A model generated the notes under the pieces. The model made no database searches and had not been told where the DNA came from. It saw nothing but the letters and a program-made list of their open reading frames with translations. Of a stretch of 64,000 nt of DNA, positions 23,123-38,074 are shown piece after piece. The DNA lies in contig LFSM01000075.1 of NCBI GenBank assembly GCA_001512745.1, forward strand, positions 3,727 to 67,726, given 5' to 3'. The translations under genes were made by a program, and so were the position numbers. Position 1 is the stretch's first letter. Each line of letters begins with the position of its first letter. This DNA is from Clostridiales bacterium DTU032. Its GTDB lineage: Bacteria; Bacillota; Clostridia; Saccharofermentanales; DTU023.

Positions 23123-25501
23123 TTATTCCTTGGTAAGGAAAGATTGACTTGCCATGAATCTTTTTATTACGCCATCGAAATCTATAGTTAAAATTGCATC
23201 CCCTGCGACCAGGTTGATCTTTATGATTTCCCCTACTCCCAGGTTTGCATGCCGGACTTTATCGCCTTTTGCAAGGGCGTTGGGATCTAATCCACCGGTT
23301 TTCTTTGAGCTTTTCTCTATACGCTCAGTGAAAGCGGCACCGAGAGTAGTTGCAAATAAATTGCGGTCTGCCCTCACTCTGGCGGCAGAGGAGAAATCTC
23401 GTAGTTCTACAGCACTACCTCGTCTTTGCAGAAGATCTTCCGGAATAGATTCAATGAAGCGAGAAGGTGGATTATACTGGGTTGAACCGAACAGAAGACG
23501 ATTGCTTGCTGTTGTGATCAACAGCTCTTGCTTGGCCCGTGTGACTGCAACATAGGCAAGCCGGCGCTCTTCTTCCATCCCGTCGGGACTTTCGTAACTG
23601 CGTGAACTGGGGAAAATACCCTCTTCTGCTCCTACCAGATAAACAACATCGAACTCAAGTCCTTTTGCACTATGAATAGTCATCAGGCTGACCAGTGCTT
23701 CTTCATCTTCTGTATCCTGATCCGTGTATAATGCGGTGCGTTCGAGAAAACTCTGAAGGATTGTTAAAGGAGTAAGTTCCTGTTTTTCTTCCTCATAGAA
23801 AGGATCATCAAAAGCTCCTTCTTCATTTTCGCGCAGAAGATTAGCCTCAAATTCCAGAGCATCAGACAAAAGTTCCTGCAGGTTTTCCAAGCGTGAAGGA
23901 GCTTCAGCATTACCGCGTTCTGCTTCTTCTTCTAAAGCAGCAACCATACCGGAGCGATGTTCAACTAAACGTACGAAGTCAGCCAGAGTCATATTATCCT
24001 CTGCCTGCTCCAGCTTCGCTCTCAAACCATCGATCAGCTGTGCAAATCCGGCCACACGTCCGGCAACTCGCGATAAGTCCTCGTAGGCGCCGGCCTTGCG
24101 TGAAATGTCCAGCATGCTGACCATATTCTCACCAGCCAGGGCATTAATGCGCTCGATAGTAACTTCACCGATGCCACGTCGCGGCACCTGGACTGCACGG
24201 CGGAAAGCCACATCGTCATCTGGAGTCATGATCAATCTTAAATAGGCGGTCACATCTTTTATTTCACGTCTGTCATAGAAGCGGGTACCGCCGTAAATAT
24301 GGTAGTTAATATTGCTTTCACGCAAGGCATATTCAATATTTCTTGAGAGGGCATTCATCCTGTAAAGCACGGCAAAGGACAGATCGTCAGGCTTATTTTC
24401 AGCTTCCAGTCTTCTGGCGATATCGCGGGCGACAAAGCGGGCTTCATCAAAATGATCTTCAGCGCGATAAAGTAAAATCGCTTCGCCACCTTCAATGGCT
24501 GTCCAGAGCCTTTTGTGTTTGCGCGCAGTATTTTCCTGAATAATATTATTTGCTGCCGCCAGAATAACGGAAGTAGAACGATAGTTTTGCTCCAGCCGTA
24601 TAACCGTTGCATTGGGAAAATCCTTTTCAAAATCCAGGATATTTTGTACATCCGCGCCCCGGAAAGAGTAGATGGACTGGTCATCATCTCCGACGACACA
24701 GAGATTTTTGTGCTGGTCTGAAAGCTGCAGCACCAGGTCATACTGTACTCTGTTTGTATCCTGATACTCATCAACCAGAATATAGCGGAACTGATGCTGG
24801 TACTGAGCCAGAATCTGCGGCTGCTCGGAAAAGAGCCGCAATGTCTGCAGAAGAATATCATCAAAATCCATTGCGTTGCGCTCAAACAAAGCTTTCTGGT
24901 ATTTCTCGTAGATCTTAGCCAGTTCCTCAGTCATATATGAAGAGCGGCTTCTTCTAACTTCAGACGGCTTCATGCCTTTATTTTTGAAATTGCCCACTTT
25001 GTTCAGAGCTTCGCGCGGTGTTAGTGTCCGTTTAGATATATTCAGTTCTTCCAGCACATCCCGCATGACCCGCTCCTGATCACTGCTATCGAAAATAGCG
25101 AATTGAGAACGATAGCCGAGCATTTCAGCATGACGGCGCAAAATGCGCAGCATCATGGAGTGAAAGGTCCCGATCCAGGCTCCGCGCGCGGAAATACCGA
25201 TTAAATCGGAGATGCGCTCTTTCATCTCGTTGGCTGCCTTATTAGTAAAAGTAATTGCCAATATTTGCGCCGGATGCACATTCTTGTGCTGTACAAGCCA
25301 GGCAACCCGACTGGTTATCACTCGTGTTTTGCCTGAACCTGCTCCAGCCAAAACCAGAAGGGGACCTTCGGTTGTAAGAACAGCGCGCCGCTGTTCAGGA
25401 TTGAGATTAGCCAGTAAAGCCTTGTCACAAGTGTTAACTTCACTAGCGTCAGCGGGCGCTGTATTTTGATTTATTAAAGGGTTATTTTGCTGTGATTGCA
25501 C
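23123..25501 (-). CDS. pcrA: ATP-dependent DNA helicase PcrA/UvrD
   Basis: LNPEQRRAV, Walker A AGAGSGKTRVIT, VDEYQDTN and VTRAKQELL are present. It uses a GTG start directly after the hpf stop. Confidence 0.92.
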   Translation of the reverse strand: MQSQQNNPLINQNTAPADASEVNTCDKALLANLNPEQRRAVLTTEGPLLVLAGAGSGKTRVITSRVAWLVQHKNVHPAQILAITFTNKAANEMKERISDLIGISARGAWIGTFHSMMLRILRRHAEMLGYRSQFAIFDSSDQERVMRDVLEELNISKRTLTPREALNKVGNFKNKGMKPSEVRRSRSSYMTEELAKIYEKYQKALFERNAMDFDDILLQTLRLFSEQPQILAQYQHQFRYILVDEYQDTNRVQYDLVLQLSDQHKNLCVVGDDDQSIYSFRGADVQNILDFEKDFPNATVIRLEQNYRSTSVILAAANNIIQENTARKHKRLWTAIEGGEAILLYRAEDHFDEARFVARDIARRLEAENKPDDLSFAVLYRMNALSRNIEYALRESNINYHIYGGTRFYDRREIKDVTAYLRLIMTPDDDVAFRRAVQVPRRGIGEVTIERINALAGENMVSMLDISRKAGAYEDLSRVAGRVAGFAQLIDGLRAKLEQAEDNMTLADFVRLVEHRSGMVAALEEEAERGNAEAPSRLENLQELLSDALEFEANLLRENEEGAFDDPFYEEEKQELTPLTILQSFLERTALYTDQDTEDEEALVSLMTIHSAKGLEFDVVYLVGAEEGIFPSSRSYESPDGMEEERRLAYVAVTRAKQELLITTASNRLLFGSTQYNPPSRFIESIPEDLLQRRGSAVELRDFSSAARVRADRNLFATTLGAAFTERIEKSSKKTGGLDPNALAKGDKVRHANLGVGEIIKINLVAGDAILTIDFDGVIKRFMASQSFLTKE

Positions 25502-26044
25502 TTAATACTCCGGTTCAATAAGACCGTAGTTGCCATCGTTACGTTTGTAAATCAGGGCAACTTTATTATTCTCTTCACTAAGGAAAAGTAAGAAAGAGTG
25601 TCCCAGCATTTCCATCTGAATAATAGCCTCGTCCGGCGTCATTGGATCAATCTGGAAACTCTTGCGACGGATGATATCCATCTCCATCTCAGGTTCATCA
25701 TCGGGAACTGAGAATGTTTCATTGGCGAAAAAGTCTCTCATGTAAGCGTATTCTTTCTTCTGCTTTTTCATTCGAGATTTTTGTTTACGTATCTGGCGCT
25801 CCAGCTTGTTGATAGCCTGCTCTACAGCAGAAATTGAATCGGGGGCATCTGCTTCCGCACGATAATAGTGTCTGCGGATCTTGATGGTCATCTCTGCACG
25901 CACCTGATCACCCTCGGGTTGAATCATTACATCTGCACGCGCCTCATCGCCGAAATAGCGAGAGAACTTTTCCAACTTCCTTTCAATCTTTTCTTTTTGT
26001 TGTTCACTGACACGAATATCTTTGCCTAAAATCTCTATATGCAT
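25502..26044 (-). CDS. hpf: Ribosome hibernation promoting factor (long form)
   Basis: An S30AE domain is followed by the C-terminal dimerisation domain (...MEMLGHSFLLFLSEENNKVALIYKRNDGNYGLIEP). The ATG at 26044 has AAAGGAG 8 nt upstream, whereas the track start 26050 is GTG. Confidence 0.88.
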   Translation of the reverse strand: MHIEILGKDIRVSEQQKEKIERKLEKFSRYFGDEARADVMIQPEGDQVRAEMTIKIRRHYYRAEADAPDSISAVEQAINKLERQIRKQKSRMKKQKKEYAYMRDFFANETFSVPDDEPEMEMDIIRRKSFQIDPMTPDEAIIQMEMLGHSFLLFLSEENNKVALIYKRNDGNYGLIEPEY

Positions 26045-26259
26045 TTGCACTGCTCCTTTCGCTTTCCAAGTGAATGGATGCTCTTTACTTAGCTATATTA
26101 TAACAGTTTATCCCGGTCCGGATACCTATCATCTAACTATAATCAGCATAAACAAAAAAGAAAAATAATTTCTATTTTTAATAGTCAAAATGTGTCAATA
26201 CAATCAGTTTTTTAATGTTAATATCTATTCTTAGAGAGGTAAAGACTAAGGAGGCACTA

Positions 26260-27924
26260 ATGAAGAAGGAAAATCAATCAGCTTTATTTCCTAATTTCAC
26301 CGTCAGAGCACTGGTTTTGGCGATATTCGGCTCTATTCTCATGACTGCGTCATCTATGTATGTTGCCTTGCGAATGAGTGCCTTGCCTTGGCCCACTATA
26401 TTTGTTGCGGTATTGTCACTGACCTTGATGCGCCTGTTCAAGAGTAATAACTTGAAGGAAGTTAACGTCGCTTCCACCGGTATGTCTGCCGGTGCAATGG
26501 TGGCCGGAGGTCTGGCCTTTACCATTCCCGGTTTGTTTATGAGTGGTGTTTGGACAATTCCGGAAGAAGCAAGTGATAACTCCCTCCTGGGACGCTATGG
26601 CTGGACAATATTTATTGTCGCCCTGTCCGGGGTTGTACTTGGCACTTTACTCTGTGCACTTTACAGAAAACGCACCATTGATCAATTGAAGCTTCCTTAT
26701 CCGATCGGTCAGGCTTCGGCAGAAACCTTGAAAGCCGGTCACGAAGGCGGCAGCAGGGCCCGGGTTTTGTTCAGCGCTCTTATTATCGCTGGTCTCTTTG
26801 TCTTGCTGCGAGACCGTTTTCAGTTCATTCCTGGCCTGGCTGCCTTTTCTCTGGCAGGTGTAAGCATAGCCTTTCAGCTTTCACCCATGGCCATCGGAAT
26901 TGGCAGCCTGATTGGTTTCAAATCGACCGCTCTTTGGTTAGGCGGTGCAGCCATTGGAGCTATCGCTATCAACCGCATTGGAGTCAGCCTGAATTGGTTT
27001 GCCTCAGCTGCTGAAGCAGCATCCTTTATCCAGATAGCGTCCATCGGTCTAATGGTTGGCTCCGGCCTGGCTACTCTGCTGGTCTCTTTGATTGGCAGCT
27101 GGCGCAGCAGAAAGACTCAGGAAAGCGCAAGCGGGGACATAGTCGAAACTGAGCGTGGTATCAGCCGGATCCGCAAAAAGTCGTCCTTGCCGCTGGGACT
27201 GCTTGCTGTTGTAGTCGCCTTTGTTCTGTCAATATTGCTGGGACTATCTGTAGCCGTTTCTTTACTGCTTTTAGTGGGAGTTTTTCTGGCCAGCGCCATG
27301 TCAACTATCATTACAGGAGAAACCGGCCTCAATCCCATGGAGATTTTCGGCATCCTTGTCCTGCTGGCCATTCGCCTCTTCGTGCCCCTGACGCCTGAAC
27401 ATGCCTTCCTGATTGCCGCCATCGTAGCAGTAGCCTGTGGTTATGCCGGTGACATGATGAATGACTTCAAAACCGGATCTATGCTGGGGACAGCGCCATC
27501 TTCACAGCTGCTCATCGAGTTCATCGGCGGCTTCTTTGGCGCTATTACCGCAACCCTGGCTTTTGTGGCTTTAGCATCAGGCTATGGTGGTTTCGGCCCT
27601 GAATTTGGATTGCCGGCTGCGCAGGCCCAGAGTGTTACAGCAATGATCGCAGGCATAGGCAATCCGCTGGTTTTTATTATTGCGGCAGTAATTGGAATAA
27701 TCCTGGTATTGCTGAAGATTCCGGCAACCATCATCGGTATCGGCCTGTTGCTCACCGGTGCCGGTCTGGCAATCCCAATCTTCGCCGGTGGAGTGTTGGA
27801 ACTGATTATTCGTAAGAAAAAGAGCGATAAAGAGGGTCCCTTGCAGCTAATTGCAGCAGGTTTGCTTGGTGGCGAAGGTATAACCGGTACGATACTTGCT
27901 ATTGTGGCTATGTTTGCCAGATAA
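26260..27924 (+). CDS. OPT-family oligopeptide transporter
   Basis: The product is polytopic with more than 14 TM helices and is rich in G/A/L/I. The N-terminus FTVRALVLAIFGSILMTASSMYVALRMS is OPT-like. The start is at ATG 26260, directly after TAAGGAGG. Confidence 0.75.
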   Translation: MKKENQSALFPNFTVRALVLAIFGSILMTASSMYVALRMSALPWPTIFVAVLSLTLMRLFKSNNLKEVNVASTGMSAGAMVAGGLAFTIPGLFMSGVWTIPEEASDNSLLGRYGWTIFIVALSGVVLGTLLCALYRKRTIDQLKLPYPIGQASAETLKAGHEGGSRARVLFSALIIAGLFVLLRDRFQFIPGLAAFSLAGVSIAFQLSPMAIGIGSLIGFKSTALWLGGAAIGAIAINRIGVSLNWFASAAEAASFIQIASIGLMVGSGLATLLVSLIGSWRSRKTQESASGDIVETERGISRIRKKSSLPLGLLAVVVAFVLSILLGLSVAVSLLLLVGVFLASAMSTIITGETGLNPMEIFGILVLLAIRLFVPLTPEHAFLIAAIVAVACGYAGDMMNDFKTGSMLGTAPSSQLLIEFIGGFFGAITATLAFVALASGYGGFGPEFGLPAAQAQSVTAMIAGIGNPLVFIIAAVIGIILVLLKIPATIIGIGLLLTGAGLAIPIFAGGVLELIIRKKKSDKEGPLQLIAAGLLGGEGITGTILAIVAMFAR

Positions 27925-27950: not shown

Positions 27951-27984
27951 TAAAAGCCGCCTGTCCCGGGACAGGCGGCTTTTC
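27951..27984. terminator. Bidirectional rho-independent terminator
   Basis: AAAAGCCGCCTGTCCCGGGACAGGCGGCTTTT is a GC-rich perfect palindrome flanked by an A-run and a T-run. It lies between convergent genes. Confidence 0.85.
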
Positions 27985-28001: not shown

Positions 28002-29015
28002 TTACTCAGCTACCTTTGAGTATTTAGTCCGGTAAATAAAGCGCATAAGCCTTGCTTCCCAACCAGCAATGGGCTTTTGTCTGCTAATCCCGGCCACATG
28101 TGCTGCACGAGCGTTTTTCTCTAAAACCGCACGCACATTACAGGCATCTGCTTCATCCCGGCCATAACAGCGAGCCAGCCCTTGTACGGGATCGAGGACA
28201 GCACTGTTATTTTTGCGCCTGTTTTTAATTTTGGGACCACAAATCTGAGCGAAATCATCCAGATAGGTTGAAAGTCCACTTTTTAAAAAATCTTGAATTA
28301 AAGGATCACGAGAATACACGCAGACTTCTTCTCTTCCCTGGGCATCCTTGTAGTGGTCTGCAGGCTCTTCGTCAGCAAAATTCAAATGAATATCGCTTCG
28401 CCTGTCAGGCTCTTTGCCTGTCAGCTCTGCAAATTTCTCCCGGGAAAATTTCTCCAGCAGTTCTGCCCGTGCGATTGCTTCTTCTATATTTGAAGCCAGG
28501 ATAAAAGCGCCATGCCGCTCCATCAAAATAACTTTGGCCCCACTTTCCTCCATAGTTGTCCTCATGTTTTTGTGCAGCATGGATGTACCGGGTAAATTGT
28601 AAGGGGAAAGTTCTAAGTTGTCCGAAGCAAAGCCGGCAGCATATTCTGCAGTAAGCGGGAAAGAGCGTCCGTAAAGGGATATTGCAGAAGCAAAAACCTG
28701 ATGAGTATGAATAATTACATTTACATCAGGATAGAGCTTATAGCTAAGTGCATGCATCGGCATTTCCGAAGACGGCTTGCCCGGACTGACAATTTCTGCA
28801 TTTTCACCGCTCAGATCTATCTTTACCAGATCATCAGGACACATTGTGTCATAGGCTTTGCCACTTGGGGTTATAAGAATACTTTGACTGTCCACGCGCC
28901 TGCTGAAGTTACCCCAGGTGCGGACAACCAGGCCTTTGGCAGTCAGGACATGGGCTAAGTCAATAATTTCTTCTCCCAGCTTCAGCTCATTCTGATTAAG
29001 TTTTTCCAGACTCAT
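28002..29015 (-). CDS. Class II aldolase/adducin-family protein with a ~130-aa C-terminal extension
   Basis: The metal and catalytic residues are conserved: PSSE, IIHTHQ and ERHGAF. The start is moved to ATG 29015 (GAGGGGTG SD), 16 nt after the upstream stop. Confidence 0.75.
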   Translation of the reverse strand: MSLEKLNQNELKLGEEIIDLAHVLTAKGLVVRTWGNFSRRVDSQSILITPSGKAYDTMCPDDLVKIDLSGENAEIVSPGKPSSEMPMHALSYKLYPDVNVIIHTHQVFASAISLYGRSFPLTAEYAAGFASDNLELSPYNLPGTSMLHKNMRTTMEESGAKVILMERHGAFILASNIEEAIARAELLEKFSREKFAELTGKEPDRRSDIHLNFADEEPADHYKDAQGREEVCVYSRDPLIQDFLKSGLSTYLDDFAQICGPKIKNRRKNNSAVLDPVQGLARCYGRDEADACNVRAVLEKNARAAHVAGISRQKPIAGWEARLMRFIYRTKYSKVAE

Positions 29016-29031
29016 GCAAGCACCCCTCTTG

Positions 29032-30498
29032 TTATTCTTCAAGGTTGACAACGTTCGCAAAAATACGGTCAAAGCGTCTCAGAGCTTCATCTATCATCTC
29101 GTCATTATATGCTGCACTAGTGTACAGACGGCTGCCGGCAAGAGTTACAATTCCTTCTGCCATATAAGCCGAGCCCATATGCTCCATCTCGTTCTTGCGT
29201 ACCGCAGTCTGATCCAGAACACCAGGTATCGTCCATGGTTTTCGCCAATTGACAGTAAAATGCATGGTACCCACTGTTTCCAGATGGCAAATCGAGCCCT
29301 GATTGAAAGCGACAAAAGGTAAACCGTGTTTCTCGATAAGTTGCTGTAAACCTGCCGTCAGCCGGTCACCGTTGGCATTGGCTTTTTCACAGGCGGATAT
29401 CTCTAACATTTCCTTTATGGTGTAATAACCGGCCAGTGCTGTTAAGGGGTTGGCGGCCAAAGTACCGCCGACCAAAGCTTTCTTGACTTTATCTCCGGTC
29501 TGAATACCCGCAGCCAGATATTTCATATATTCCTGTTTGCCGCCCAAACCACCGGCGCTCGGGTATCCGCCGCCGATGACTTTACCAAAGACAGTTAAGT
29601 CAGGCTCTACACCCATTATCCCCTGGGCACCGTCCATTGACAGCCGGAAGGCAGTTACAACTTCATCAAAAATCAGCATGCAGCCATATTTGCGGCACAG
29701 TTTCTCAATGCCCTGCACGAATTCTATCGATACAGGTCTGGTACCACTCTCCGGGCCAATAGCCTCCACCATTATTGCTGCGGTCCCGCCTCGCAGTTGA
29801 TTGCGGCGAAGTTTTCTTTCCAGGGCATCAAGGTCACCCGGGAAGAATTCATCAGTATATTTAAACATTTTAATTGGTACACCATGAGCCTGTGTGAATT
29901 TGCTTCCGGGAACGCGGATACCATAAGCCAGCTGGTCCGACCAGCCATGATAGGCTCCGCCCATCTTGAGTACCCGTTTTTTCTTTGTGGCCAGGCGCGC
30001 AACACGAATCGCTGCCATGCAGGCTTCGGTACCTGAGTTAAACATACGCAGCCAATTAACTGATGGCATAAGATCACTGACCAGTTTGGCCAGCTTGTAT
30101 TCATATTCATGGAAGAGGCCTGTAGAAGGTCCGCATGTATTTAGCAAGTCAATAACTTTTTCACGGACTTCAGGAGGGTTTGAGCCTATAACAACAGGTC
30201 CGCCGGCTTGCAGAAAGTCAAAATACTTGTTTCCGTCAATGTCAGTCAAATATGCGCCATTGGCTCCGGTAAAAACTAGAGGAAAGGGGTGATTGAAAGC
30301 CAGATTATGCTGTACTCCACCGGGTATATATTTCCGGGCCTCGTCAATCATCGCCTTACTCTTACTGCACTTGCCCAGATAGTATTCATTTTCATATCTT
30401 GACAAAGCCTCGGGTGAAATCGAATATATAGGTTTCTTGATCAATTCATCCAATTGGCTGGTAATCTTATCAACTGTTTTCTGACTCAGATCTATCAT
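29032..30498 (-). CDS. Class III PLP-dependent aminotransferase/aminomutase, long HemL (GSA-aminomutase)-like paralog
   Basis: NSGTEACMAAIRVAR, IFDEVVTAFR and the Schiff-base lysine context VFGKVIGGGYP are present. It carries a ~60-aa N-terminal extension relative to HemL. The ATG at 30498 follows GGGAGG. Confidence 0.75.
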   Translation of the reverse strand: MIDLSQKTVDKITSQLDELIKKPIYSISPEALSRYENEYYLGKCSKSKAMIDEARKYIPGGVQHNLAFNHPFPLVFTGANGAYLTDIDGNKYFDFLQAGGPVVIGSNPPEVREKVIDLLNTCGPSTGLFHEYEYKLAKLVSDLMPSVNWLRMFNSGTEACMAAIRVARLATKKKRVLKMGGAYHGWSDQLAYGIRVPGSKFTQAHGVPIKMFKYTDEFFPGDLDALERKLRRNQLRGGTAAIMVEAIGPESGTRPVSIEFVQGIEKLCRKYGCMLIFDEVVTAFRLSMDGAQGIMGVEPDLTVFGKVIGGGYPSAGGLGGKQEYMKYLAAGIQTGDKVKKALVGGTLAANPLTALAGYYTIKEMLEISACEKANANGDRLTAGLQQLIEKHGLPFVAFNQGSICHLETVGTMHFTVNWRKPWTIPGVLDQTAVRKNEMEHMGSAYMAEGIVTLAGSRLYTSAAYNDEMIDEALRRFDRIFANVVNLEE

Positions 30499-30540
30499 TT
30501 TAAAGCCTCCCTGCAAAACTCTTTCCGCTTAGATCAATAT

Positions 30541-30560
30541 AAGTGAGTGAGTGCTCACTT
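30541..30560. promoter_or_regulatory. Operator-like inverted repeat 1 (AAGTGAG-N6-CTCACTT)
   Basis: aagtgagtgagtgctcactt lies about 40 bp upstream of the aminotransferase start. It shares ATAAGTGAG...CTCACTT with the second site. Confidence 0.6.
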
Positions 30561-30651
30561 TTTTCAAACTAGCCCAACTTATATAAATAGTCAAGTATTT
30601 TGCATCATTATTTGCATTTTTAGTGATAACTGCTAGAATCTATCCATAGAT

Positions 30652-30671
30652 AAGTGAGCAATTGCTCACTT
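30652..30671. promoter_or_regulatory. Operator-like inverted repeat 2 (perfect 20-bp palindrome AAGTGAGCAATTGCTCACTT)
   Basis: It lies 12 bp downstream of a candidate -10 (TAGAAT, 30634-30639) and 25 bp upstream of the tetR start. Confidence 0.65.
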
Positions 30672-30695
30672 GCACTTTTGAAGAGGTAGCAATAA

Positions 30696-31358
30696 GTGAA
30701 ATATTCAAGTCCACGTTTTGATCGTCTTGATGAGGAAAAAAAACAAAGAATTATTCGTGCTGCCATTGATGAATTCGCTAACCTTGGTTTCGAAGCAGCA
30801 AATATTAATAAAATCGCCAGAAAAGCTCACATCTCGGTAGGTTCGCTCTACAAGTATTTTAAAAGCAAAAAAGATCTCTTTTTATATGTTATTCAGCTAA
30901 GTTCGGATTTGATTGAGGAAGAGTTAAGAGCTGTTAATGAAGCTCCTTTTATGAGTGTAGAAAGCAAGATTGAGAAAGTTCTGCGCATCATCCTGCGCAC
31001 TAATCGTCAGCAAGCCAATCTGATCCGCCTTTATCTTGAGCTGACCTCCAGCAGCAATAATGATATGACAAAGCTATTAAGCTTCAATCTGGAAACCTTT
31101 TCTTCACAATGCTACAGACAAATTCTGGCAAATGGCCAGGCAACAGGCGAAGTCCGGGCAGATATTGATCCTGCAATGGCGGCTTTTCATTTGGATAATA
31201 TTTTTTTGGCCCTGCAATACTCATATGTTGGCGGATATTTATACGAACGCTATCGTATCTATGTAAAAGAAGGAATTGACTCAATTGAAAATGATGAGTT
31301 TGTTATAGCAGAAACAATGAAATTTCTGCAGGGAGCTTTGCTGAACGCCAAAGATTAG
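30696..31358 (+). CDS. TetR/AcrR-family transcriptional regulator
   Basis: The N-terminal HTH RIIRAAIDEFANLGFEAANINKIARKAHISVGSLYKYFKSKKDLF is TetR-type. It uses a GTG start. Confidence 0.88.
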   Translation: MKYSSPRFDRLDEEKKQRIIRAAIDEFANLGFEAANINKIARKAHISVGSLYKYFKSKKDLFLYVIQLSSDLIEEELRAVNEAPFMSVESKIEKVLRIILRTNRQQANLIRLYLELTSSSNNDMTKLLSFNLETFSSQCYRQILANGQATGEVRADIDPAMAAFHLDNIFLALQYSYVGGYLYERYRIYVKEGIDSIENDEFVIAETMKFLQGALLNAKD

Positions 31359-31373
31359 TGTGAGGAAACAACT

Positions 31374-33002
31374 ATGTATATCTTGACCTTCGACATTGGA
31401 ACCACAGGTGTTAAAACCTGCCTCTTCAATTTACTTGGAGATAAGAATGATGACAAAAGCAGTCGTTCACTGCAGCTGGTCGATGCAGCTTTCGGAGACT
31501 ACGGTTTAGAAATCCTGCCCAATGGCGGGGCAGAACAGGATCCGGATGAATGGTGGGCAGCTATTGTCGATACCAGCAGATCAATCGCTGCTAAGAATCC
31601 TGACGCCGTCCGTGAACTGGCAGGCATCAGTTTCTGCTCGCAAATGCAGAGCGTCGTTTTGCTTGATAAAAATGGACACCACCTGCGCCCATCAATGAGC
31701 TATATGGATCAGCGCGCTGGAGATATAAAGGATAAATATGGTGGTCCCGGTCCCAAAATTGCCGATGTCGGCATCCCCTTCCTGCTCAAAAGTCTAATAC
31801 AAACAGGAGTAGTTTCTGCAAGTGACAAAGACCCTGTCTGGAAATATCTTTGGGTCAAGGAAAATGAAGCTGAACTTTTCCAAAAAGTCTATAAGTGGCT
31901 GGATGTCAAAGAAGCTATAATCGCACGTATGACCGGACGTTTCATTCGCAGCCATGACAGCGCCTTCACTATGCTGCTTCTGGACAAAGACGATAGCAAT
32001 CCTGCTTATTCTCTGCCACTGATACACGGTCTCGGTATCGAAGAATCTCATCTTCCGGAAATAGTTAAGTCAACTGACAATGTGGGCGGTTTGCTGCCGG
32101 AAGCAGCTCAGGAAATGGGTTTAAGGGCAGGAACTCCGGTTTTCGCCGGTGGCGGTGACTCCTCCCTTTCCTCTGTCGGTGCCGGATGCGTAGCTCCCGG
32201 AGATACACATGTCTATATGGGCACAAGTGGCTGGGTCTCCGCTGTAACTGACAGAAAGCTTACTGATACTCAGGCTATGGTGGCATCAGTAGTTGGTGTA
32301 CAGCCCGGACTCTACAACTATTTTGCCGAACTGGAAACTGCCGGCAAATGTCTGGAATGGGTGCGCGATCATCTGGCTCTGGATGAGATCAATATCTATC
32401 TGTCAAAAACCTCAGTCTCGGATGCTCCCGGGGCTGAGCACACCTCTCTCTATGACTATATGTCTGAAGTTATCAGTAAAAGTCCCAGTGGTTCCGGTGG
32501 AGTAATTTTCACCCCCTGGCTCCATGGCAATCGCTGTCCTTTCGAAGATTCAAATGCTCGCGGAATGTTCTTTAACATCAGTCTTGACACCGGAAAAACC
32601 GAACTTATCCGGGCAGTTGTAGAAGGTGTTTGCTATCATATGCGCTGGTTCGTGGAACTGATTGAAAAGAAAATGGAAATCAAATCACCCATCCGTTTTA
32701 TCGGCGGGGGTGCCCTGTCCTCAGTAACAGCCGGAATTCTGGCTGATATTTTGCAGCTTCCGGTTGAGACTGTAGATGATCCGCAAAATTTTGGAGCGGT
32801 GGGTGCTGCCTTGCTGGTCGCAGCAGGTCTCGGAGAACTGGAAGATTTAAGCGAGGCCCGTCGCATCGTCAAGGTCAACAGAAGCTTCACTCCAAATCCT
32901 GACGCGAAAGCAGTACACGATCGTAATTATGAAGTGTTCAAAACTATGTATAAAGCCAATAGGGATGCCTTTCAGCTATTGAATGCCACTAGTGAAAATT
33001 AA
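31374..33002 (+). CDS. FGGY-family carbohydrate kinase (substrate unknown)
   Basis: The N-terminal phosphate-1 motif FDIGTTGVKT, GTSGWV and the C-terminal FIGGGALSS are present. The product is 542 aa. Confidence 0.82.
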   Translation: MYILTFDIGTTGVKTCLFNLLGDKNDDKSSRSLQLVDAAFGDYGLEILPNGGAEQDPDEWWAAIVDTSRSIAAKNPDAVRELAGISFCSQMQSVVLLDKNGHHLRPSMSYMDQRAGDIKDKYGGPGPKIADVGIPFLLKSLIQTGVVSASDKDPVWKYLWVKENEAELFQKVYKWLDVKEAIIARMTGRFIRSHDSAFTMLLLDKDDSNPAYSLPLIHGLGIEESHLPEIVKSTDNVGGLLPEAAQEMGLRAGTPVFAGGGDSSLSSVGAGCVAPGDTHVYMGTSGWVSAVTDRKLTDTQAMVASVVGVQPGLYNYFAELETAGKCLEWVRDHLALDEINIYLSKTSVSDAPGAEHTSLYDYMSEVISKSPSGSGGVIFTPWLHGNRCPFEDSNARGMFFNISLDTGKTELIRAVVEGVCYHMRWFVELIEKKMEIKSPIRFIGGGALSSVTAGILADILQLPVETVDDPQNFGAVGAALLVAAGLGELEDLSEARRIVKVNRSFTPNPDAKAVHDRNYEVFKTMYKANRDAFQLLNATSEN

Positions 33003-33074
33003 GGAGATAATATGACTAATCAGGTACCTCTAAAGTCCGGAGATAATATGACTAATCAGGTACCTCTAAAGTCC
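33003..33074 (+). repeat. Perfect 36-bp tandem duplication covering the SD, ATG and first 9 codons of the GtrA-like gene
   Basis: GGAGATAATATGACTAATCAGGTACCTCTAAAGTCC occurs at 33003-33038 and again, identically, at 33039-33074. The duplication is in frame (12 codons). Confidence 0.95.
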
Positions 33075-33509
33075 AAAGAATCATTAATTCAGGCGGTGAA
33101 ATTCACCTTACTCTCTCTTTCAGCCGGTTTGATTGAAGTGGTATCCTTCATCCTGCTGGAACGACTGACAAGTCTTCCCTACGACTATAAACACATAATT
33201 TCTATTGTTTTGTCAGTACTCTGGAACTTTACTCTAAACCGCCGTTACACTTTCAAATCTGCCAATAACATTCCTATCGCCATGATCAAGGTAGCACTCT
33301 TCTACGTAGTTTTCATACCTCTGACTGCCTGGCTGGGACAGTTAGCTTCAAATAACAATATTAATGACTATCTGATAAAAATCCCGACTATGCTCCTGAA
33401 TTTCGTCGGAGAATTTATCTGGTGGAAATTTGTTGTTTTCCGCGGTAGTGAAAATACAAATAAACTGGCTCAGGAAAAAGCTGACCAATCGGAGCAGTCT
33501 GCTGATTAA
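33012..33509 (+). CDS. GtrA-family membrane protein (alternative in-frame start at 33048)
   Basis: VKFTLLSLSAGLIEVVSFILL and LNRRYTFK are GtrA-like, and there are 4 TM helices. The N-terminus MTNQVPLKS is repeated because of the duplication. Confidence 0.75.
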   Translation: MTNQVPLKSGDNMTNQVPLKSKESLIQAVKFTLLSLSAGLIEVVSFILLERLTSLPYDYKHIISIVLSVLWNFTLNRRYTFKSANNIPIAMIKVALFYVVFIPLTAWLGQLASNNNINDYLIKIPTMLLNFVGEFIWWKFVVFRGSENTNKLAQEKADQSEQSAD

Positions 33510-33541: not shown

Positions 33542-33573
33542 AAAAGGCATAGCCGTTATTTCCGGCTATGCCT
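33542..33573 (-). terminator. Rho-independent terminator downstream of gap
   Basis: The 11-bp stem AGGCATAGCCG / CGGCTATGCCT has a 7-nt loop. A U-run follows on the minus-strand RNA. Confidence 0.75.
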
Positions 33574-33602
33574 CATTCAGAAAAGTATATTTTGCCTCTA
33601 AC

Positions 33603-34679
<1,077 letters not shown>

Positions 34680-34736
34680 TTAAGTCCTTTCTAGTTCGTG
34701 TGTTTTTTCTTTAATCTAATGTTCTGCCAATCAGGC

Positions 34737-34765
34737 ATTATAGCGTTTTAGCAGTTAAACTTCAA
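34737..34765 (-). promoter_or_regulatory. Sigma-A-type promoter of gap (TTGAAG-17-TATAAT)
   Basis: On the minus strand, TTGAAG lies at 34765-34760 and TATAAT at 34742-34737. Confidence 0.6.
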
Positions 34766-34817
34766 TTGCTAATAGACTTACACCTTGACAAAGGGCAGAT
34801 AGCACAAAAGACCATGT

Positions 34818-34844
34818 AAAAGGGGGCTGGTAAAGCCAGCCCCC
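34818..34844 (-). terminator. Rho-independent terminator of the glycine-cleavage operon
   Basis: The stem GGGGGCTGG / CCAGCCCCC has a 5-nt loop. UUUU follows on the minus-strand RNA. Confidence 0.8.
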
Positions 34845-34874
34845 TTCACAAGTTTACAAAATCTGATTAACTTA

Positions 34875-36335
34875 TTAATCCGTGCATGTCAGGATCTGAT
34901 CCTTGGCAGCTCTGGTTTCATCGGGTCGGGCTATGGGTGTACCATGCGGCGCACCTTTAACCAGCTCGGGATTGCTTTCACATTCTTTAGCGATGTCGAT
35001 AAGAGCCTGAGCCAAAGCATCCAGATCACGCCAGGTTTCCGTCTCAGTAGGTTCAATCATCATTGCCTCATGAACAATCAACGGGAAATAAACTGTCGGC
35101 GGATGGAAGCCATAGTCAATCAGCCTCTTGGCGATATCATTGGTGTCAATGCCGTATTTTTCTTTCTGCCAGGCACTGCTGATGACAAACTCATGCATAC
35201 AATCTTCGTCGTAAGCCAGGTGATAATAGTCTTTTACCCGTTCCATAATATAACGGGCATTGGCAACAGCACCTTCTGAAACTTCTTTAAGTCCTTCGAC
35301 ACCATTGCGCAGCATATAGGCATATGTACGGACAAGAACTCCAAAAGAGCCGATGAAGGAACGCATCATACCCAGACTGTGAGGTCTGTCGTAGTCAAGG
35401 GTGTAGCCATCATCTTCCTTAACAACTACAGGTCTTGGCAGATATTTCTCCAGGAAATCTTTACAGCCAACAGGGCCTGCTCCCGGACCGCCGCCACCGT
35501 GAGGTGTTGACAAGCTCTTGTGTACGTTCAAGTGGACACAGTCAAAGCCCATGTCTCCGGGGCGTGCCTGCATCATAATGGGGTTAAGATTCGCACCATC
35601 GTAATAGCAGAGACCGCCACAGTCATGAACCATTTGCGTAATCCGGTCAATATTGCAGTCAAAAAGACCAAGTGTGTTCGGATTGGTCAGCATGAGACCG
35701 GCCACGTCATCTCCCAGCACCTCAGCCAGAGCATCCAGATCAACTAAACCATGTTCATTGGACTTTACTTCTCTTACCTTATAGCCGGCCATAGCTGCAG
35801 TTGCAGGGTTAGTGCCGTGGGCTGCATCAGGAATAATGATAGTATCTCGTTTAGTGTGACCTTTATCCTCGTGGTAAGCCTTGATCAGAAGAATGCCTGT
35901 CAACTCACCATGTGCTCCGGCAGCCGGCTGGAAAGTGAAAGCATCCATGCCTGTCAGGTCGTTAAGCTGCAGTTCCAGATCATGGAGCAATTCCAGACTT
36001 CCCTGAACTGTTTCACAGGCCTGATACGGGTGAAGGTTGGCGAAGCCAGGCAAAGCTGCCATATCTTCGTTGACCTTAGGATTGTATTTCATTGTGCAGG
36101 AACCAAGTGGATAGGTGCCAACTTCAACACTGAAGTTTTTATTCGACAGATTTGTGTAATGCCGAATGGCGGTTATTTCATCCACGTTGGGCATGTCCGG
36201 TAATTCAGCTCTGTAGCTGTCACCATAATACGCTGCAAGATCCGGCATCTCAACATCGAGAGGACGGATGTAACTGCTTTTGAATGATTTTGATCCTTTT
36301 GTAAAAATCAATGGGGTATCTTTTAGCATAGTCAT
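34875..36335 (-). CDS. gcvPB: Glycine dehydrogenase (decarboxylating) subunit 2
   Basis: GSCTMKYNPK and the PLP-lysine context HLNVHKSLSTPHGGGGPG are present. Confidence 0.93.
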   Translation of the reverse strand: MTMLKDTPLIFTKGSKSFKSSYIRPLDVEMPDLAAYYGDSYRAELPDMPNVDEITAIRHYTNLSNKNFSVEVGTYPLGSCTMKYNPKVNEDMAALPGFANLHPYQACETVQGSLELLHDLELQLNDLTGMDAFTFQPAAGAHGELTGILLIKAYHEDKGHTKRDTIIIPDAAHGTNPATAAMAGYKVREVKSNEHGLVDLDALAEVLGDDVAGLMLTNPNTLGLFDCNIDRITQMVHDCGGLCYYDGANLNPIMMQARPGDMGFDCVHLNVHKSLSTPHGGGGPGAGPVGCKDFLEKYLPRPVVVKEDDGYTLDYDRPHSLGMMRSFIGSFGVLVRTYAYMLRNGVEGLKEVSEGAVANARYIMERVKDYYHLAYDEDCMHEFVISSAWQKEKYGIDTNDIAKRLIDYGFHPPTVYFPLIVHEAMMIEPTETETWRDLDALAQALIDIAKECESNPELVKGAPHGTPIARPDETRAAKDQILTCTD

Positions 36336-36350
36336 ATTATTCCTCCTCTC

Positions 36351-37688
36351 TTATTGTGCCTTGGCAAGACGTACAACTGTCTCGACAAATTTGTCCATGG
36401 CCTGCTTTGATTTCTTTTCAGTAACTGCGAGGAGCCAACGATTGTCATCAACTACCAGACCACCGAAAATCTTTTCCGCCAGAAGATCCTGGTTCAATTT
36501 ATTGAGATCAAGATCTCCTTTGGCTGTCAGAGCAAATTCACGGAAAACAGGTGAATCATATGTATTCTCAAACAAACCGGTAGCCAGCAGTTTTTCCTGC
36601 AGATAAAGTGCTTTAGCTGCTGACTGCTCCGCTACATCTCTGATACCGGAAGAACCCATCAGTGCCAGCCAGATAGTAGCTGATGTCGCCATCAGTGCCT
36701 GAGCTGTACAGATATTCGAGGTAGCACGCTCACGGCGAATATGCTGTTCACGTGCCTGTATTGTCAAAACGTAGCTGGTTTTGCCATCACGGTCGACAGT
36801 TTCCCCGGCAATACGTCCCGGCATTTTGCGCAGTAGTTTCTGCGTTACTGCCATATAACCCACACCGGGCCCGCCAAAAGACATGGGGATGCCCAGAGCC
36901 TGTGCTTCACCAGTGACAATATCAACACCAAGATCTCCCGGACGTTGTAATAAGGCGAGGCTGATCAAATCACAGGAAGCTGCCGCCAGGGCACCAGTAG
37001 CATGAGCTTTTTCAACTACGAGTGAGAGATCCTCAACAACACCATAGAAGTTCGGGCTTTGCACCATAAAAGCGGCATAGCCCTTCTCTGCCGGGAATTC
37101 GACTGTTTGACCGGCTTCATTTAAAGCTCCTACTTCAACTTCAACACCTGCTGCATGGCAATAGGTTTCAATTGTCTCAATATATTCAGGATGCATACCT
37201 GCTGACACAAAAACTTTGTAGAGGCGTTTTTCACGACAGGCCATTAAAGCAGCCTCGGCTGCTGCGGAAGCACCGTCGTACATGGAAGCGTTAGAAACAT
37301 CCATGCCGCTAAGGCGGCTAATATAGCTCTGCCACTCAAAGATTGCCTGCAAAGTTCCCTGGGAAATTTCAGCCTGGTAAGGTGTGTAGGCAGTAAGATA
37401 CTCAGTTCTGCTAATCAAATGCTTTACAGCGGCAGGCTGATAATGGTCATAAAAACCTGCTCCAAGATAAGAGTCATAGTCATCTGTGCGTTTATTCAAA
37501 TTCGCCAGAGCTGTTAGGCGCTCGACTACTTCAAACTCAGAAACACCTTCCTTTTGTAAGCCGCTGAAATCTGTATTTTTTAATCTCTGTGACTCCTGGA
37601 TCGAGTCGAAAAGGTGATCTAAATCAACACCAACCGATGCGAGCATTTCGCGACGTTCCTCCCGACCCATGGGAAGATAAGCGGTCAT
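36351..37688 (-). CDS. gcvPA: Glycine dehydrogenase (decarboxylating) subunit 1
   Basis: YTPYQAEISQGTLQAIFEWQ and MSFGGPGVGYM are present. The start overlaps the gcvH stop. Confidence 0.93.
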   Translation of the reverse strand: MTAYLPMGREERREMLASVGVDLDHLFDSIQESQRLKNTDFSGLQKEGVSEFEVVERLTALANLNKRTDDYDSYLGAGFYDHYQPAAVKHLISRTEYLTAYTPYQAEISQGTLQAIFEWQSYISRLSGMDVSNASMYDGASAAAEAALMACREKRLYKVFVSAGMHPEYIETIETYCHAAGVEVEVGALNEAGQTVEFPAEKGYAAFMVQSPNFYGVVEDLSLVVEKAHATGALAAASCDLISLALLQRPGDLGVDIVTGEAQALGIPMSFGGPGVGYMAVTQKLLRKMPGRIAGETVDRDGKTSYVLTIQAREQHIRRERATSNICTAQALMATSATIWLALMGSSGIRDVAEQSAAKALYLQEKLLATGLFENTYDSPVFREFALTAKGDLDLNKLNQDLLAEKIFGGLVVDDNRWLLAVTEKKSKQAMDKFVETVVRLAKAQ

Positions 37689-38074
37689 GCAGATTCCTCC
37701 TCACAGAACTTTTTGTAAGCTTCAGCGTCCATCAGGCCATCCAGCTGTGAAGGATCAGACATTTCAATTTTCACAAACCAGGTGCCAAAAGCATCCTCAT
37801 TGATTTGTTCCGGTGCGTCTTCGATAGACTCATTGGATTCAATAATTTTGCCGGCTACAGGAGAATAAAGGTCTGAAGCCATCTTTACAGACTCGACGCT
37901 GCCAACCAGATCATCAATCTCAACATCTATATCGACGGGCTCGGCTTCTGCATAAACCAGGTCACCCAATTGGTCCTGGGCGAAATCTGTGATGCCTATT
38001 GCGGCAACATTACCTTCAACCTCTACCCATTCATGGGTCTTTGCATAAAGACGATCTTCTTTTACTGTGGTCAT
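37685..38074 (-). CDS. gcvH: Glycine cleavage system H protein
   Basis: THEWVEVEGN is present, and the lipoyl-lysine context is VESVKMASDLYSPV. Confidence 0.92.
   Translation of the reverse strand: MTTVKEDRLYAKTHEWVEVEGNVAAIGITDFAQDQLGDLVYAEAEPVDIDVEIDDLVGSVESVKMASDLYSPVAGKIIESNESIEDAPEQINEDAFGTWFVKIEMSDPSQLDGLMDAEAYKKFCEEESA

Follow-up and report, generated by a model that had tools for sequence, protein, structure and literature searches.

Within a 64,000-nucleotide stretch of the genome of Clostridiales bacterium DTU032 (contig LFSM01000075.1, positions 3,727 to 67,726; hereafter the window), positions 28002-33509 hold a compact cassette of five genes in two divergent arms. A sequence-only reading had described it as a TetR-controlled cluster, and the enzyme families and gene context suggest the catabolism of an amino-sugar or amino-polyol. 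The open reading frame (ORF) listing and Pfam searches of the window bore out the five-gene divergent layout and the families named in that reading, with every ORF in its expected place.

28002-28400, minus strand: C-terminal extension of the aldolase (residues about 206-337), a degenerate, metal-free half-repeat with the motif Y251-L-D253-D254-F-A-Q257
28401-29015, minus strand: catalytic N-domain of the aldolase, FucA/DrdA-like class II fold (PF00596)
29032-30498, minus strand: HemL-like class III pyridoxal phosphate (PLP) aminotransferase, 488 aa (PF00202; PLP Lys306, Asp278, motif P59-GGVQHNLAFN)
30696-31358, plus strand: TetR-family repressor, 220 aa, GTG start
31374-33002, plus strand: FGGY-family kinase, 542 aa, closest to the xylulokinase/gluconokinase branch
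33012-33509, plus strand: GtrA-family four-helix membrane protein, 165 aa (153 aa from a second start; PF04138)

The aldolase ORF scored 146 bits on Aldolase_II (PF00596), the aminotransferase 166.6 bits on Aminotran_3 (gathering threshold 30.5), the regulator 51 bits on TetR_N, the kinase 123 and 98 bits on FGGY_N and FGGY_C, and the membrane protein 40.8 bits on GtrA_DPMS_TM (gathering threshold 26.1). The PSSE, HTH, and RHG motifs of the aldolase and the lysine in FGKVIGGG of the aminotransferase were all found in the translations. For both minus-strand genes the longest ORF is too long. The aldolase most likely starts at ATG 29015, behind an AGAGGAG ribosome-binding site, which gives 337 aa (TTG 29072 is not favored), and the aminotransferase most likely starts at ATG 30498, behind GGGAGG, which gives 488 aa. 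With the aldolase start at 29015, the apparent overlap between the two genes vanishes.

Conservation and mobility of the cassette

A species-level genome scan returned more than 587 loci, and the counts given below are from the best 80. The aminotransferase gene adjoins the aldolase gene in 68 of these 80 loci, which span Bacillota, Actinomycetota, Chloroflexota, and Spirochaetota. Of the 80, 32 have the kinase, 21 have GtrA, typically directly 3′ of the kinase, and 16 have TetR. Identity across loci is 62-92% for the aminotransferase, 45-87% for the kinase, 40-89% for GtrA, 30-85% for TetR, and 28-86% for the aldolase. When 12 pair-bearing genomes lacking an adjacent kinase were searched whole, 11 held an ortholog elsewhere (53-59% identity), in four cases behind a TetR ortholog. 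Among 80 metagenome loci seeded with the kinase, from a scan whose matches were close orthologs only, we found TetR in 41, the aldolase in 30, a cassette-type aminotransferase in 34 (27 closest to the window copy and seven to a paralog described below), and GtrA in 16. The sequence-only reading had hinged on the three enzymes co-occurring beyond this genome, and the genome and metagenome loci do share the set.

In the aminotransferase tree, the window copy groups with two other Bacillota inside a clade of four Bacillota and three Chloroflexota (support 99). Eight Actinomycetota join in a wider clade (support 99), where the short aldolase, kinase, and GtrA occur in the same order. We read the cassette as self-contained and horizontally mobile; its carriers are skin, mucosal, gut, rumen, and digester organisms. 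A census of the neighbors of the 80 loci covered 290 flanking genes in 192 clusters, with Pfam searches on 148 representatives. Beyond lineage synteny, no neighbor recurred in these loci save a class-3 aldehyde dehydrogenase, closest to enzymes of fatty and aromatic aldehydes, which follows the cassette in six. No sugar ABC transporter, phosphotransferase system, or glycosidase gene was recurrent among these neighbors, and an aldose-ketose isomerase was found neither in the window block nor as a recurrent gene near the 80 loci.

Some loci have features of their own. An Oscillospiraceae metagenome-assembled genome carries a decaying cassette (L025, 4888-8591), with the aminotransferase in two frames, kinase fragments, and an aldolase match from residue 140. 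In L052 (2137-6128), and likewise in 13 further Acutalibacteraceae loci, the aminotransferase-aldolase pair lies back to back with a conserved divergent operon that encodes a 255-aa protein (sub-threshold SCP2, 15.9 bits), a second class III aminotransferase of 422 aa, and a split transketolase (N and C parts), with a further SCP2-like protein of 272 aa nearby. In L032, L046, and L061, the gene divergent from the pair encodes a 224-aa, nucleosidase-like member of the PNP_UDP_1 superfamily.

Twin operators in the divergent region

The 197-bp region between the two arms contains two candidate promoters and two predicted operators.

30541-30560, palindrome: Operator 1, AAGTGAGTGAGTGCTCACTT, just downstream of the candidate minus-strand promoter
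30586-30581, minus strand: candidate promoter of the aminotransferase-aldolase arm, TTGACT
30611-30639, plus strand: candidate sigma-70 promoter of the tetR-kinase-gtrA arm, TTTGCA-17-TAGAAT with a TG extension (9 of 12 consensus matches), called from its consensus match only
30652-30671, perfect 20-bp palindrome: Operator 2, AAGTGAGCAATTGCTCACTT, 13 nt downstream of the tetR-arm -10 box

Both operators read AAGTGAG-N6-CTCACTT, and each sits just downstream of one candidate promoter. The pattern has just these two matches in the 64-kb window, against a chance expectation of 0.02. In 1.33 Mb of relatives' loci, the core GTGAG-N6-CTCAC has 13 unique matches, with about one expected from base composition; 11 of them lie upstream of the aminotransferase gene, within about 250 bp and mostly within 100 bp. 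Varibaculum (Actinomycetota) has a twin-operator arrangement resembling that of the window. In four Acutalibacteraceae genomes, the core stands upstream of the aminotransferase gene although the TetR-kinase pair lies at a separate locus. This persistence of the core at a distance from TetR and the kinase links all three enzymes, across phyla, to a single repressor. We therefore predict that the cassette is repressed by its own TetR through the twin operators over both divergent promoters; the TetR control proposed from the window alone is strengthened by the conservation of these sites with the cassette. No NCBIfam equivalog model reached its cut-off for this TetR in an NCBIfam scan.

The aminotransferase differs from HemL

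Lys306 (in FGKVIGGG) and Asp278 (in IFDEV) align with the Schiff-base lysine and the pyridine-nitrogen aspartate of glutamate-1-semialdehyde aminomutase (GSAM, HemL). With the Pfam score, these two residues place the enzyme in the class III PLP aminotransferase fold, which it shares with HemL and the transaminase relatives of HemL (D-phenylglycine aminotransferase, the β-transaminases, GntE, and FumI). HemL models are its top matches (279 and 257 bits) and orthologs are often named HemL in public sources, so the gene might be taken for a second hemL whose clustering with the others is incidental. We consider this exceedingly improbable. On the hemL equivalog model TIGR00713, the window enzyme scored 256.8 bits and a second copy in the same genome (contig C3) 281.4 bits, both under the cut-off of 527.3. 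The glutamyl-tRNA reductase gene hemA was not found in the genome, an 88%-complete assembly (best match 22.7 bits against a cut-off of 209.55), and the linkage to the aldolase is strict across four phyla.

The active site points the same way. In an alignment to four solved GSAMs, including that of B. subtilis, GGVNSPVRAF becomes GGVQHNL-AF, with the arginine position gapped; this is Arg32 in Synechococcus numbering, which we take to bind the substrate carboxylate in GSAM. The C-terminal PSQFE segment of GSAM is shortened to GS-R, so that QFE is gone beside the invariant Arg457. Glu406 of the Synechococcus enzyme presumably repels α-carboxylates, and we assume an arginine in its place to be a mark of ordinary class III transaminases. 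Across 59 loci, 164 of the 494 alignment columns are at least 98% identical, and GGVQHNLAFN is invariant. The N-terminal extension relative to HemL noted earlier is real but shorter than the 60 or so residues proposed: position 1 of the HemL model aligns at ORF residue 52, and the extension is about 45 aa, a segment HemL lacks. HemL also retains NSPVR where the cassette enzyme has QHNL, keeps QFE, and belongs to a heme context that is missing here. Judged by its sequence, the aminotransferase is not HemL.

Close orthologs with characterized unrelated functions would have told against the earlier reading as much as a second hemL. All orthologs in public sources have generic names or are misnamed HemL, and none has a characterized unrelated function. 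The family is large: clustered at 90% identity, its members below 1e-100 form more than 7,600 clusters.

The aldolase carries a degenerate half-domain

The N-domain of the aldolase matched FucA in Foldseek with target-normalized template modeling (TM) scores of 0.82-0.84 and superposes on both FucA and DrdA at a TM score of about 0.83. By sequence, its closest solved relatives are DrdA (6btd, 5.7e-21) and then FucA. The metal and acid residues reported as intact are indeed in place: H103, H105, H168, and E84 correspond to FucA H92, H94, H155, and E73. The phosphate site is kept as well (N36 for N29, S51-G52 for T43-G44, and S82-S83 for S71-S72), and all of these residues are invariant across the family alignment. 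The gene is the sole Aldolase_II gene in the genome. The PSSE glutamate was tried as a discriminator between MtnB dehydratases and aldolases and was rejected, as a typical aldolase beside a RuBisCO-like protein (L098) has KPSSE.

No NCBIfam equivalog cut-off was reached by the aldolase; the closest model was PRK06557, "L-ribulose-5-phosphate 4-epimerase" (113.7 bits against a cut-off of 251). This top match, the AraD structures among the Foldseek fold matches, and a kinase nearest to xylulokinase would suit a route in which the transaminase converts an amino-pentitol or amino-sugar to a ketopentose, the XylB-like kinase makes the 5-phosphate, and an AraD-type 4-epimerase yields xylulose-5-phosphate with no aldehyde released. 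We regard this route as very unlikely: the PRK06557 score is far under its cut-off, the acid residue at the metal is the FucA-like Glu84, where AraD-type epimerases presumably carry an aspartate, and an aldehyde dehydrogenase recurs as a neighbor.

An uncharacterized C-terminal extension of about 130 aa had been noted earlier; the extension is present, and its origin can now be given. A profile of the C-terminal 133 residues aligned to the N-domain profile over 101 columns (N-domain residues 83-203) with an hhalign probability of 96.7% and E = 3.6e-10, a similarity seen in the profile comparison alone, as direct BLASTP gave E = 1.5. The His/His/His/Glu ligand positions correspond to Y234, R236, a glycine, and D215. 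Most relatives are about 400 aa long with two Aldolase_II stretches in Pfam, and the window aldolase is of a shorter form of 330-350 aa; the two-part family comprises about 1,400 clusters at 50% identity (E ≤ 1e-30). Its best 150 representatives reach 583 aa at most, and none of them is a fusion with the aminotransferase; one fusion-like match proved to be the decaying cassette of L025. In an AlphaFold2 model (pLDDT 92.6, pTM 0.91), both parts form one body, and the succession of strands and helices in the extension follows that in the second half of the N-domain. When the full model was searched with Foldseek, solved folds were matched through the N-domain only and no solved tandem form was found. 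These comparisons identify the extension as a degenerate half copy of a second class II aldolase domain.

The invariant residues of the extension are Y251, D253, D254, F255, Q257, K300, Y328, and Y332. Two chained alignments, one of them a profile alignment at 10% identity, place D253-D254 at FucA His112-Tyr113, with D254 at Tyr113. In FucA, the His112-Tyr113 helix is loaned to the active site by a neighboring subunit. The extension may thus be an internalized dummy half-subunit that still completes the active site, supplying this helix in cis with the Asp-Asp pair at His112-Tyr113.

The kinase, GtrA, and alternative membrane partners

The kinase scored 266 bits on the XylB model (TIGR01312; cut-off 380.25), 106 on FucK, and 26 on RhaB; it is under the xylulokinase equivalog cut-off, yet an FGGY member by Pfam. 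In three loci (L161, L163, and L191), the TetR-kinase pair is followed by an endonuclease/exonuclease/phosphatase-family gene (349-431 aa), for which no solved relative was found by sequence. In human-gut lineages (L127-L137, L143, and L147), the kinase gene lies just upstream of a lipoprotein-mreB-mreC-mreD-pbp2-minD block, and in Acutalibacteraceae (L039, L057, and L060) an aldolase gene without the aminotransferase lies just downstream of pbp2.

The start of gtrA is duplicated.

33003-33074, plus strand: perfect 36-bp tandem duplication over the gtrA ribosome-binding site and start (Tandem Repeats Finder: period 36, 2.0 copies, 100% match)

The duplication spans the first eight codons, creates in-frame starts at 33012 and 33048, and adds 12 residues to a protein that is 149-154 aa long in relatives. 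No glycosyltransferase partner of GtrA was found in the cassette or as a recurrent gene among the neighbors of the 80 loci. A transport role had been raised for GtrA, and it gains some support from a few relatives in which an MFS_2 permease replaces GtrA; we infer that GtrA is a membrane component for uptake or handling. GPH-type MFS_2 permeases lie within an aldolase-type cassette (L038, 10595-12004) and a RuBisCO-like-type cassette (L096, 6213-7742), and in Trueperella an SMR-family pump gene is directly 3′ of the aldolase gene (L013, 9293-9817).

The GtrA family is known in envelope glycosylation systems (Pfam PF04138), which raises the question of biosynthesis. The aldolase would then join dihydroxyacetone phosphate (DHAP) to an aldehyde, the transaminase would aminate C2, and GtrA would deliver the resulting amino-polyol phosphate, be it a sphingoid-like base, a precursor of an iminosugar, or a substituent of the envelope, to machinery of the membrane or envelope. 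The conservation of the aminotransferase (62-92% identity), unusually high for a catabolic enzyme, the position of the kinase or aldolase beside mreBCD-pbp2 in some gut lineages, and the known biosynthetic transamination of DHAP to serinol phosphate would all fit. However, a kinase present in 11 of 12 genomes would be superfluous if the phosphate came from DHAP, no glycosyltransferase, ligase, or acyltransferase recurs among the neighbors, and a TetR repressor, a patchy mobile distribution, and an aldehyde dehydrogenase partner are features seen more often in catabolic or detoxifying systems. A biosynthetic role is, in our estimate, quite improbable.

A paralogous cassette with a RuBisCO-like protein

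Contig C3 of the same genome carries a parallel set (L083, 5492-13185) of divergent TetR, FGGY kinase, HemL-like aminotransferase, RuBisCO-like protein, and MtnX-like HAD phosphatase genes, directly following genes for an MtnP-like phosphorylase and an MtnA-like IF-2B isomerase. Its kinase is 45% and its aminotransferase 52% identical to those of the window, and the aminotransferase has the same GGVQHNLAFN motif. The RuBisCO-like protein scored 342 bits on the MtnW model (cut-off 409). The kinase-aminotransferase-RuBisCO-like core occurs in three other genomes of the class without MtnP or MtnA beside it. The two TetR proteins are only 25% identical, and the kinase gene of the parallel set has a single copy of the operator core, GTGAGTACTCCCTCAC, close to its 5′ end (L083, 8269-8284).

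This neighborhood brings in the DHAP shunt for 5′-deoxyadenosine and methylthioadenosine (MtnP or MtnN/K, MtnA/DrdI, Ald2/DrdA). The aldolase could cleave 5-deoxyribulose-1-phosphate or methylthioribulose-1-phosphate, with the transaminase disposing of the aldehyde: the closest solved sequence, DrdA 6btd, is a 5-deoxyribulose-1-phosphate aldolase, the paralogous cassette adjoins MtnP-like and MtnA-like genes, and the genome has no other class II aldolase. We hold a function in this shunt to be highly improbable. An MtnA ortholog is found in just 4 of 18 cassette-bearing genomes and in none of the Actinomycetaceae and Acutalibacteraceae examined, so the cassette is not a device for methylthioadenosine salvage; the adjacency of MtnP and MtnA to the paralogous cassette is lost in the nearest relative, and an FGGY kinase would have no role after a phosphorylase and an isomerase.

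The two cassettes are informative in another way. A 2-keto-3-hydroxy-1-phosphate motif can be processed, in methylthioribulose-1-phosphate metabolism, either by class II aldolases (Ald2/DrdA) or by RuBisCO-like proteins. A shared kinase-transaminase front end that feeds either enzyme would most simply make this motif, and its substrate would then need a C1 hydroxyl and a C2 amine.

Boundaries and flanking genes

Two hairpins border the block.

27952-27983, both strands: bidirectional intrinsic terminator between the OPT transporter gene (plus) and the aldolase gene (minus)
33545-33574, minus strand: hairpin terminator of the convergent gap gene (-19.7 / -22.3 kcal/mol)

The first has a 14-bp G+C-rich stem (-24.8 / -25.9 kcal/mol and z about -5.9 / -5.3 on the two strands) and is judged bidirectional because A/U tracts lie on both sides. 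The second has a U-tract on the minus strand only, which makes it primarily the gap terminator and, by prediction, at best a weak stop for gtrA. The earlier view that strong terminators insulate the block thus holds for the hairpin beside the aldolase and at best weakly for that beyond gtrA. The flanks (23123-27924 and 33603-38074) encode a UvrD/PcrA-type helicase, a long hibernation-promoting factor, an OPT-family transporter, gap, gcvPB, gcvPA, and gcvH; these names were read off the translations, that of the OPT transporter alone coming from Pfam. Such housekeeping flanks fit the insertion of a mobile cassette amid unrelated genes.

A proposed pathway and its competitors

We propose, at slightly under an even chance, that the cassette breaks down an amino-polyol of the 2-amino-1,3,4-triol type, with the head group CH2OH-CH(NH2)-CHOH-CHOH-R, by phosphorylation, transamination, and aldol cleavage. 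The XylB-like FGGY kinase would phosphorylate the primary C1 hydroxyl. The HemL-like enzyme, acting as a true transaminase with a keto-acid co-substrate rather than as an aminomutase, would convert the C2 amine to a ketone and so give a ketose-1-phosphate-like compound. The class II aldolase would cut C3-C4, for which the 4-hydroxyl is needed, into DHAP and an aldehyde, and in some relatives the class-3 aldehyde dehydrogenase would oxidize the aldehyde. The order kinase-transaminase-aldolase is suggested by the XylB-like kinase, the strict adjacency of aminotransferase and aldolase, and the gene order of the paralog. The substrate could be a small amino-alditol or a sphingoid base. There is a chemical precedent for the second step in RtxA, whose N-terminal domain interconverts DHAP and serinol phosphate, a ketose phosphate/2-amino-alcohol phosphate pair, by transamination (PMC3222319). 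RtxA works in the biosynthetic direction in an unrelated gene cluster, and the parallel drawn here is one of chemistry.

Several points weigh against this pathway. The kinase is adjacent in only 32 of the 80 loci, and the top NCBIfam match of the aldolase is a 4-epimerase subfamily (PRK06557). The paralogous cassette and a few relatives combine a kinase with a phosphatase, which suits a relocation of phosphate better than plain breakdown. The Asp-Asp pair was mapped to FucA Tyr113 through an alignment at 10% identity, not through coordinates. No member of the cassette families has a known enzyme activity, ligand, or phenotype. The FGGY kinases known act on hydroxylated sugars and polyols, with none known on an amino-alcohol, and no lipid substrates are known for FGGY or FucA-type enzymes. 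Free 2-amino-2-deoxy-alditols are rare in nature.

Several of the same observations would suit an aldolase that runs toward addition. The transaminase would turn a small amino alcohol such as ethanolamine or 1-amino-2-propanol into glycolaldehyde or lactaldehyde. Immediate aldolase-catalyzed addition to DHAP would give a pentulose- or 6-deoxyhexulose-1-phosphate, and once its phosphate had been removed, the XylB-like kinase would make the 5-phosphate for the pentose phosphate pathway. Class III enzymes typically use terminal amines and aldehydes, the transaminase and aldolase form the invariant adjacent core, the catalytic domain is nearest to FucA and DrdA, whose aldehydes are lactaldehyde, glycolaldehyde, and acetaldehyde, the kinase is XylB-like and thus a C5 kinase, and HAD phosphatases lie beside some kinases. 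Nevertheless, this scheme seems to us rather unlikely. Neither the window cassette nor most relatives have a phosphatase, and the aldolase would face competition from an aldehyde dehydrogenase encoded in its own operon. In the paralogous RuBisCO-like cassette there is no aldolase to take up the aldehyde, and no eut-type or other small-amine permease recurs among the neighbors.

As for the substrate of the proposed cleavage pathway, the commonest natural 2-amino-1,3,4-triols are phytosphingosine-type bases. The cassette might accordingly serve an oxygen-independent degradation or detoxification of phytosphingosine-type long-chain bases in Gram-positive commensals and anaerobes, independent of sphingosine-1-phosphate lyase, a specific form that we consider unlikely. 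After phosphorylation at C1 and transamination at C2, the aldolase would release DHAP and a fatty aldehyde. Bases without the 4-hydroxyl would fall to the paralogous RuBisCO-like cassette, and the amphiphilic amine would be handled in the membrane by GtrA or, in relatives, by MFS_2 or SMR proteins. An amphiphilic substrate is weakly suggested by the class-3 aldehyde dehydrogenase, GtrA and its MFS_2 and SMR alternatives, and the lack of recurrent sugar uptake genes, and as weakly by the sub-threshold SCP2-like neighbors in Acutalibacteraceae and the habitats of the carriers.

Relation to known pathways and significance

The nearest characterized parallels to the proposed pathway are the operons for L-fucose, D-arabinose, and L-rhamnose (FucK/RhaB with FucA/RhaD and FucO/AldA). 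They likewise pair an FGGY kinase with a zinc aldolase of the FucA fold, whose DHAP-site residues are kept in the cassette, and are likewise inducible and repressor-controlled; some cassette relatives also have an aldehyde dehydrogenase. They differ in having an isomerase where the cassette has a class III PLP transaminase, and kinases of the FucK/RhaB branch where that of the cassette belongs to the XylB/GntK branch. Their aldolases rely only on a neighboring subunit, whereas the cassette aldolase bears its degenerate half-domain in cis. The DHAP shunt, which supplies the closest solved homolog, has the chemistry proposed here, from a ketose-1-phosphate to DHAP and a small aldehyde, but makes the ketose-1-phosphate with a phosphorylase and an isomerase, where the cassette would use a kinase and a transaminase; 14 of the 18 carrier genomes have no MtnA. 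The kinase/aminotransferase/RuBisCO-like cassettes, uncharacterized and related to Bacillus MtnW-MtnX, share paralogous TetR, kinase, and aminotransferase genes with the window cassette, with the RuBisCO-like protein and HAD phosphatase in place of the aldolase and GtrA.

The sequence-only reading could match the block to no known pathway, and we likewise found no description of the cassette in the papers searched, on its enzyme families, on RuBisCO-like proteins and methionine salvage, on sphingoid bases and serinol phosphate, and on HemL-like enzymes. A review of methionine salvage mentions no aminotransferase, aminomutase, or xylulokinase variant (PMC6302742), and the only HemL-like enzyme found in these papers, the 3-aminobutyryl-CoA transaminase of lysine fermentation, differs in its gene context.

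A pathway assignment would mend a large block of wrong annotation, in which these enzymes carry generic or HemL names. Solving the substrate of one cassette would probably also assign a function to the RuBisCO-like clade of the parallel cassette. In enzymology, it would give a transaminase in the place where sugar pathways have an isomerase, and an aldolase whose partner subunit has been internalized as a catalytically dead half-domain. The pathway itself would be a new entry into glycolysis for an amine-bearing nutrient or toxin in gut, rumen, vaginal, and digester communities.

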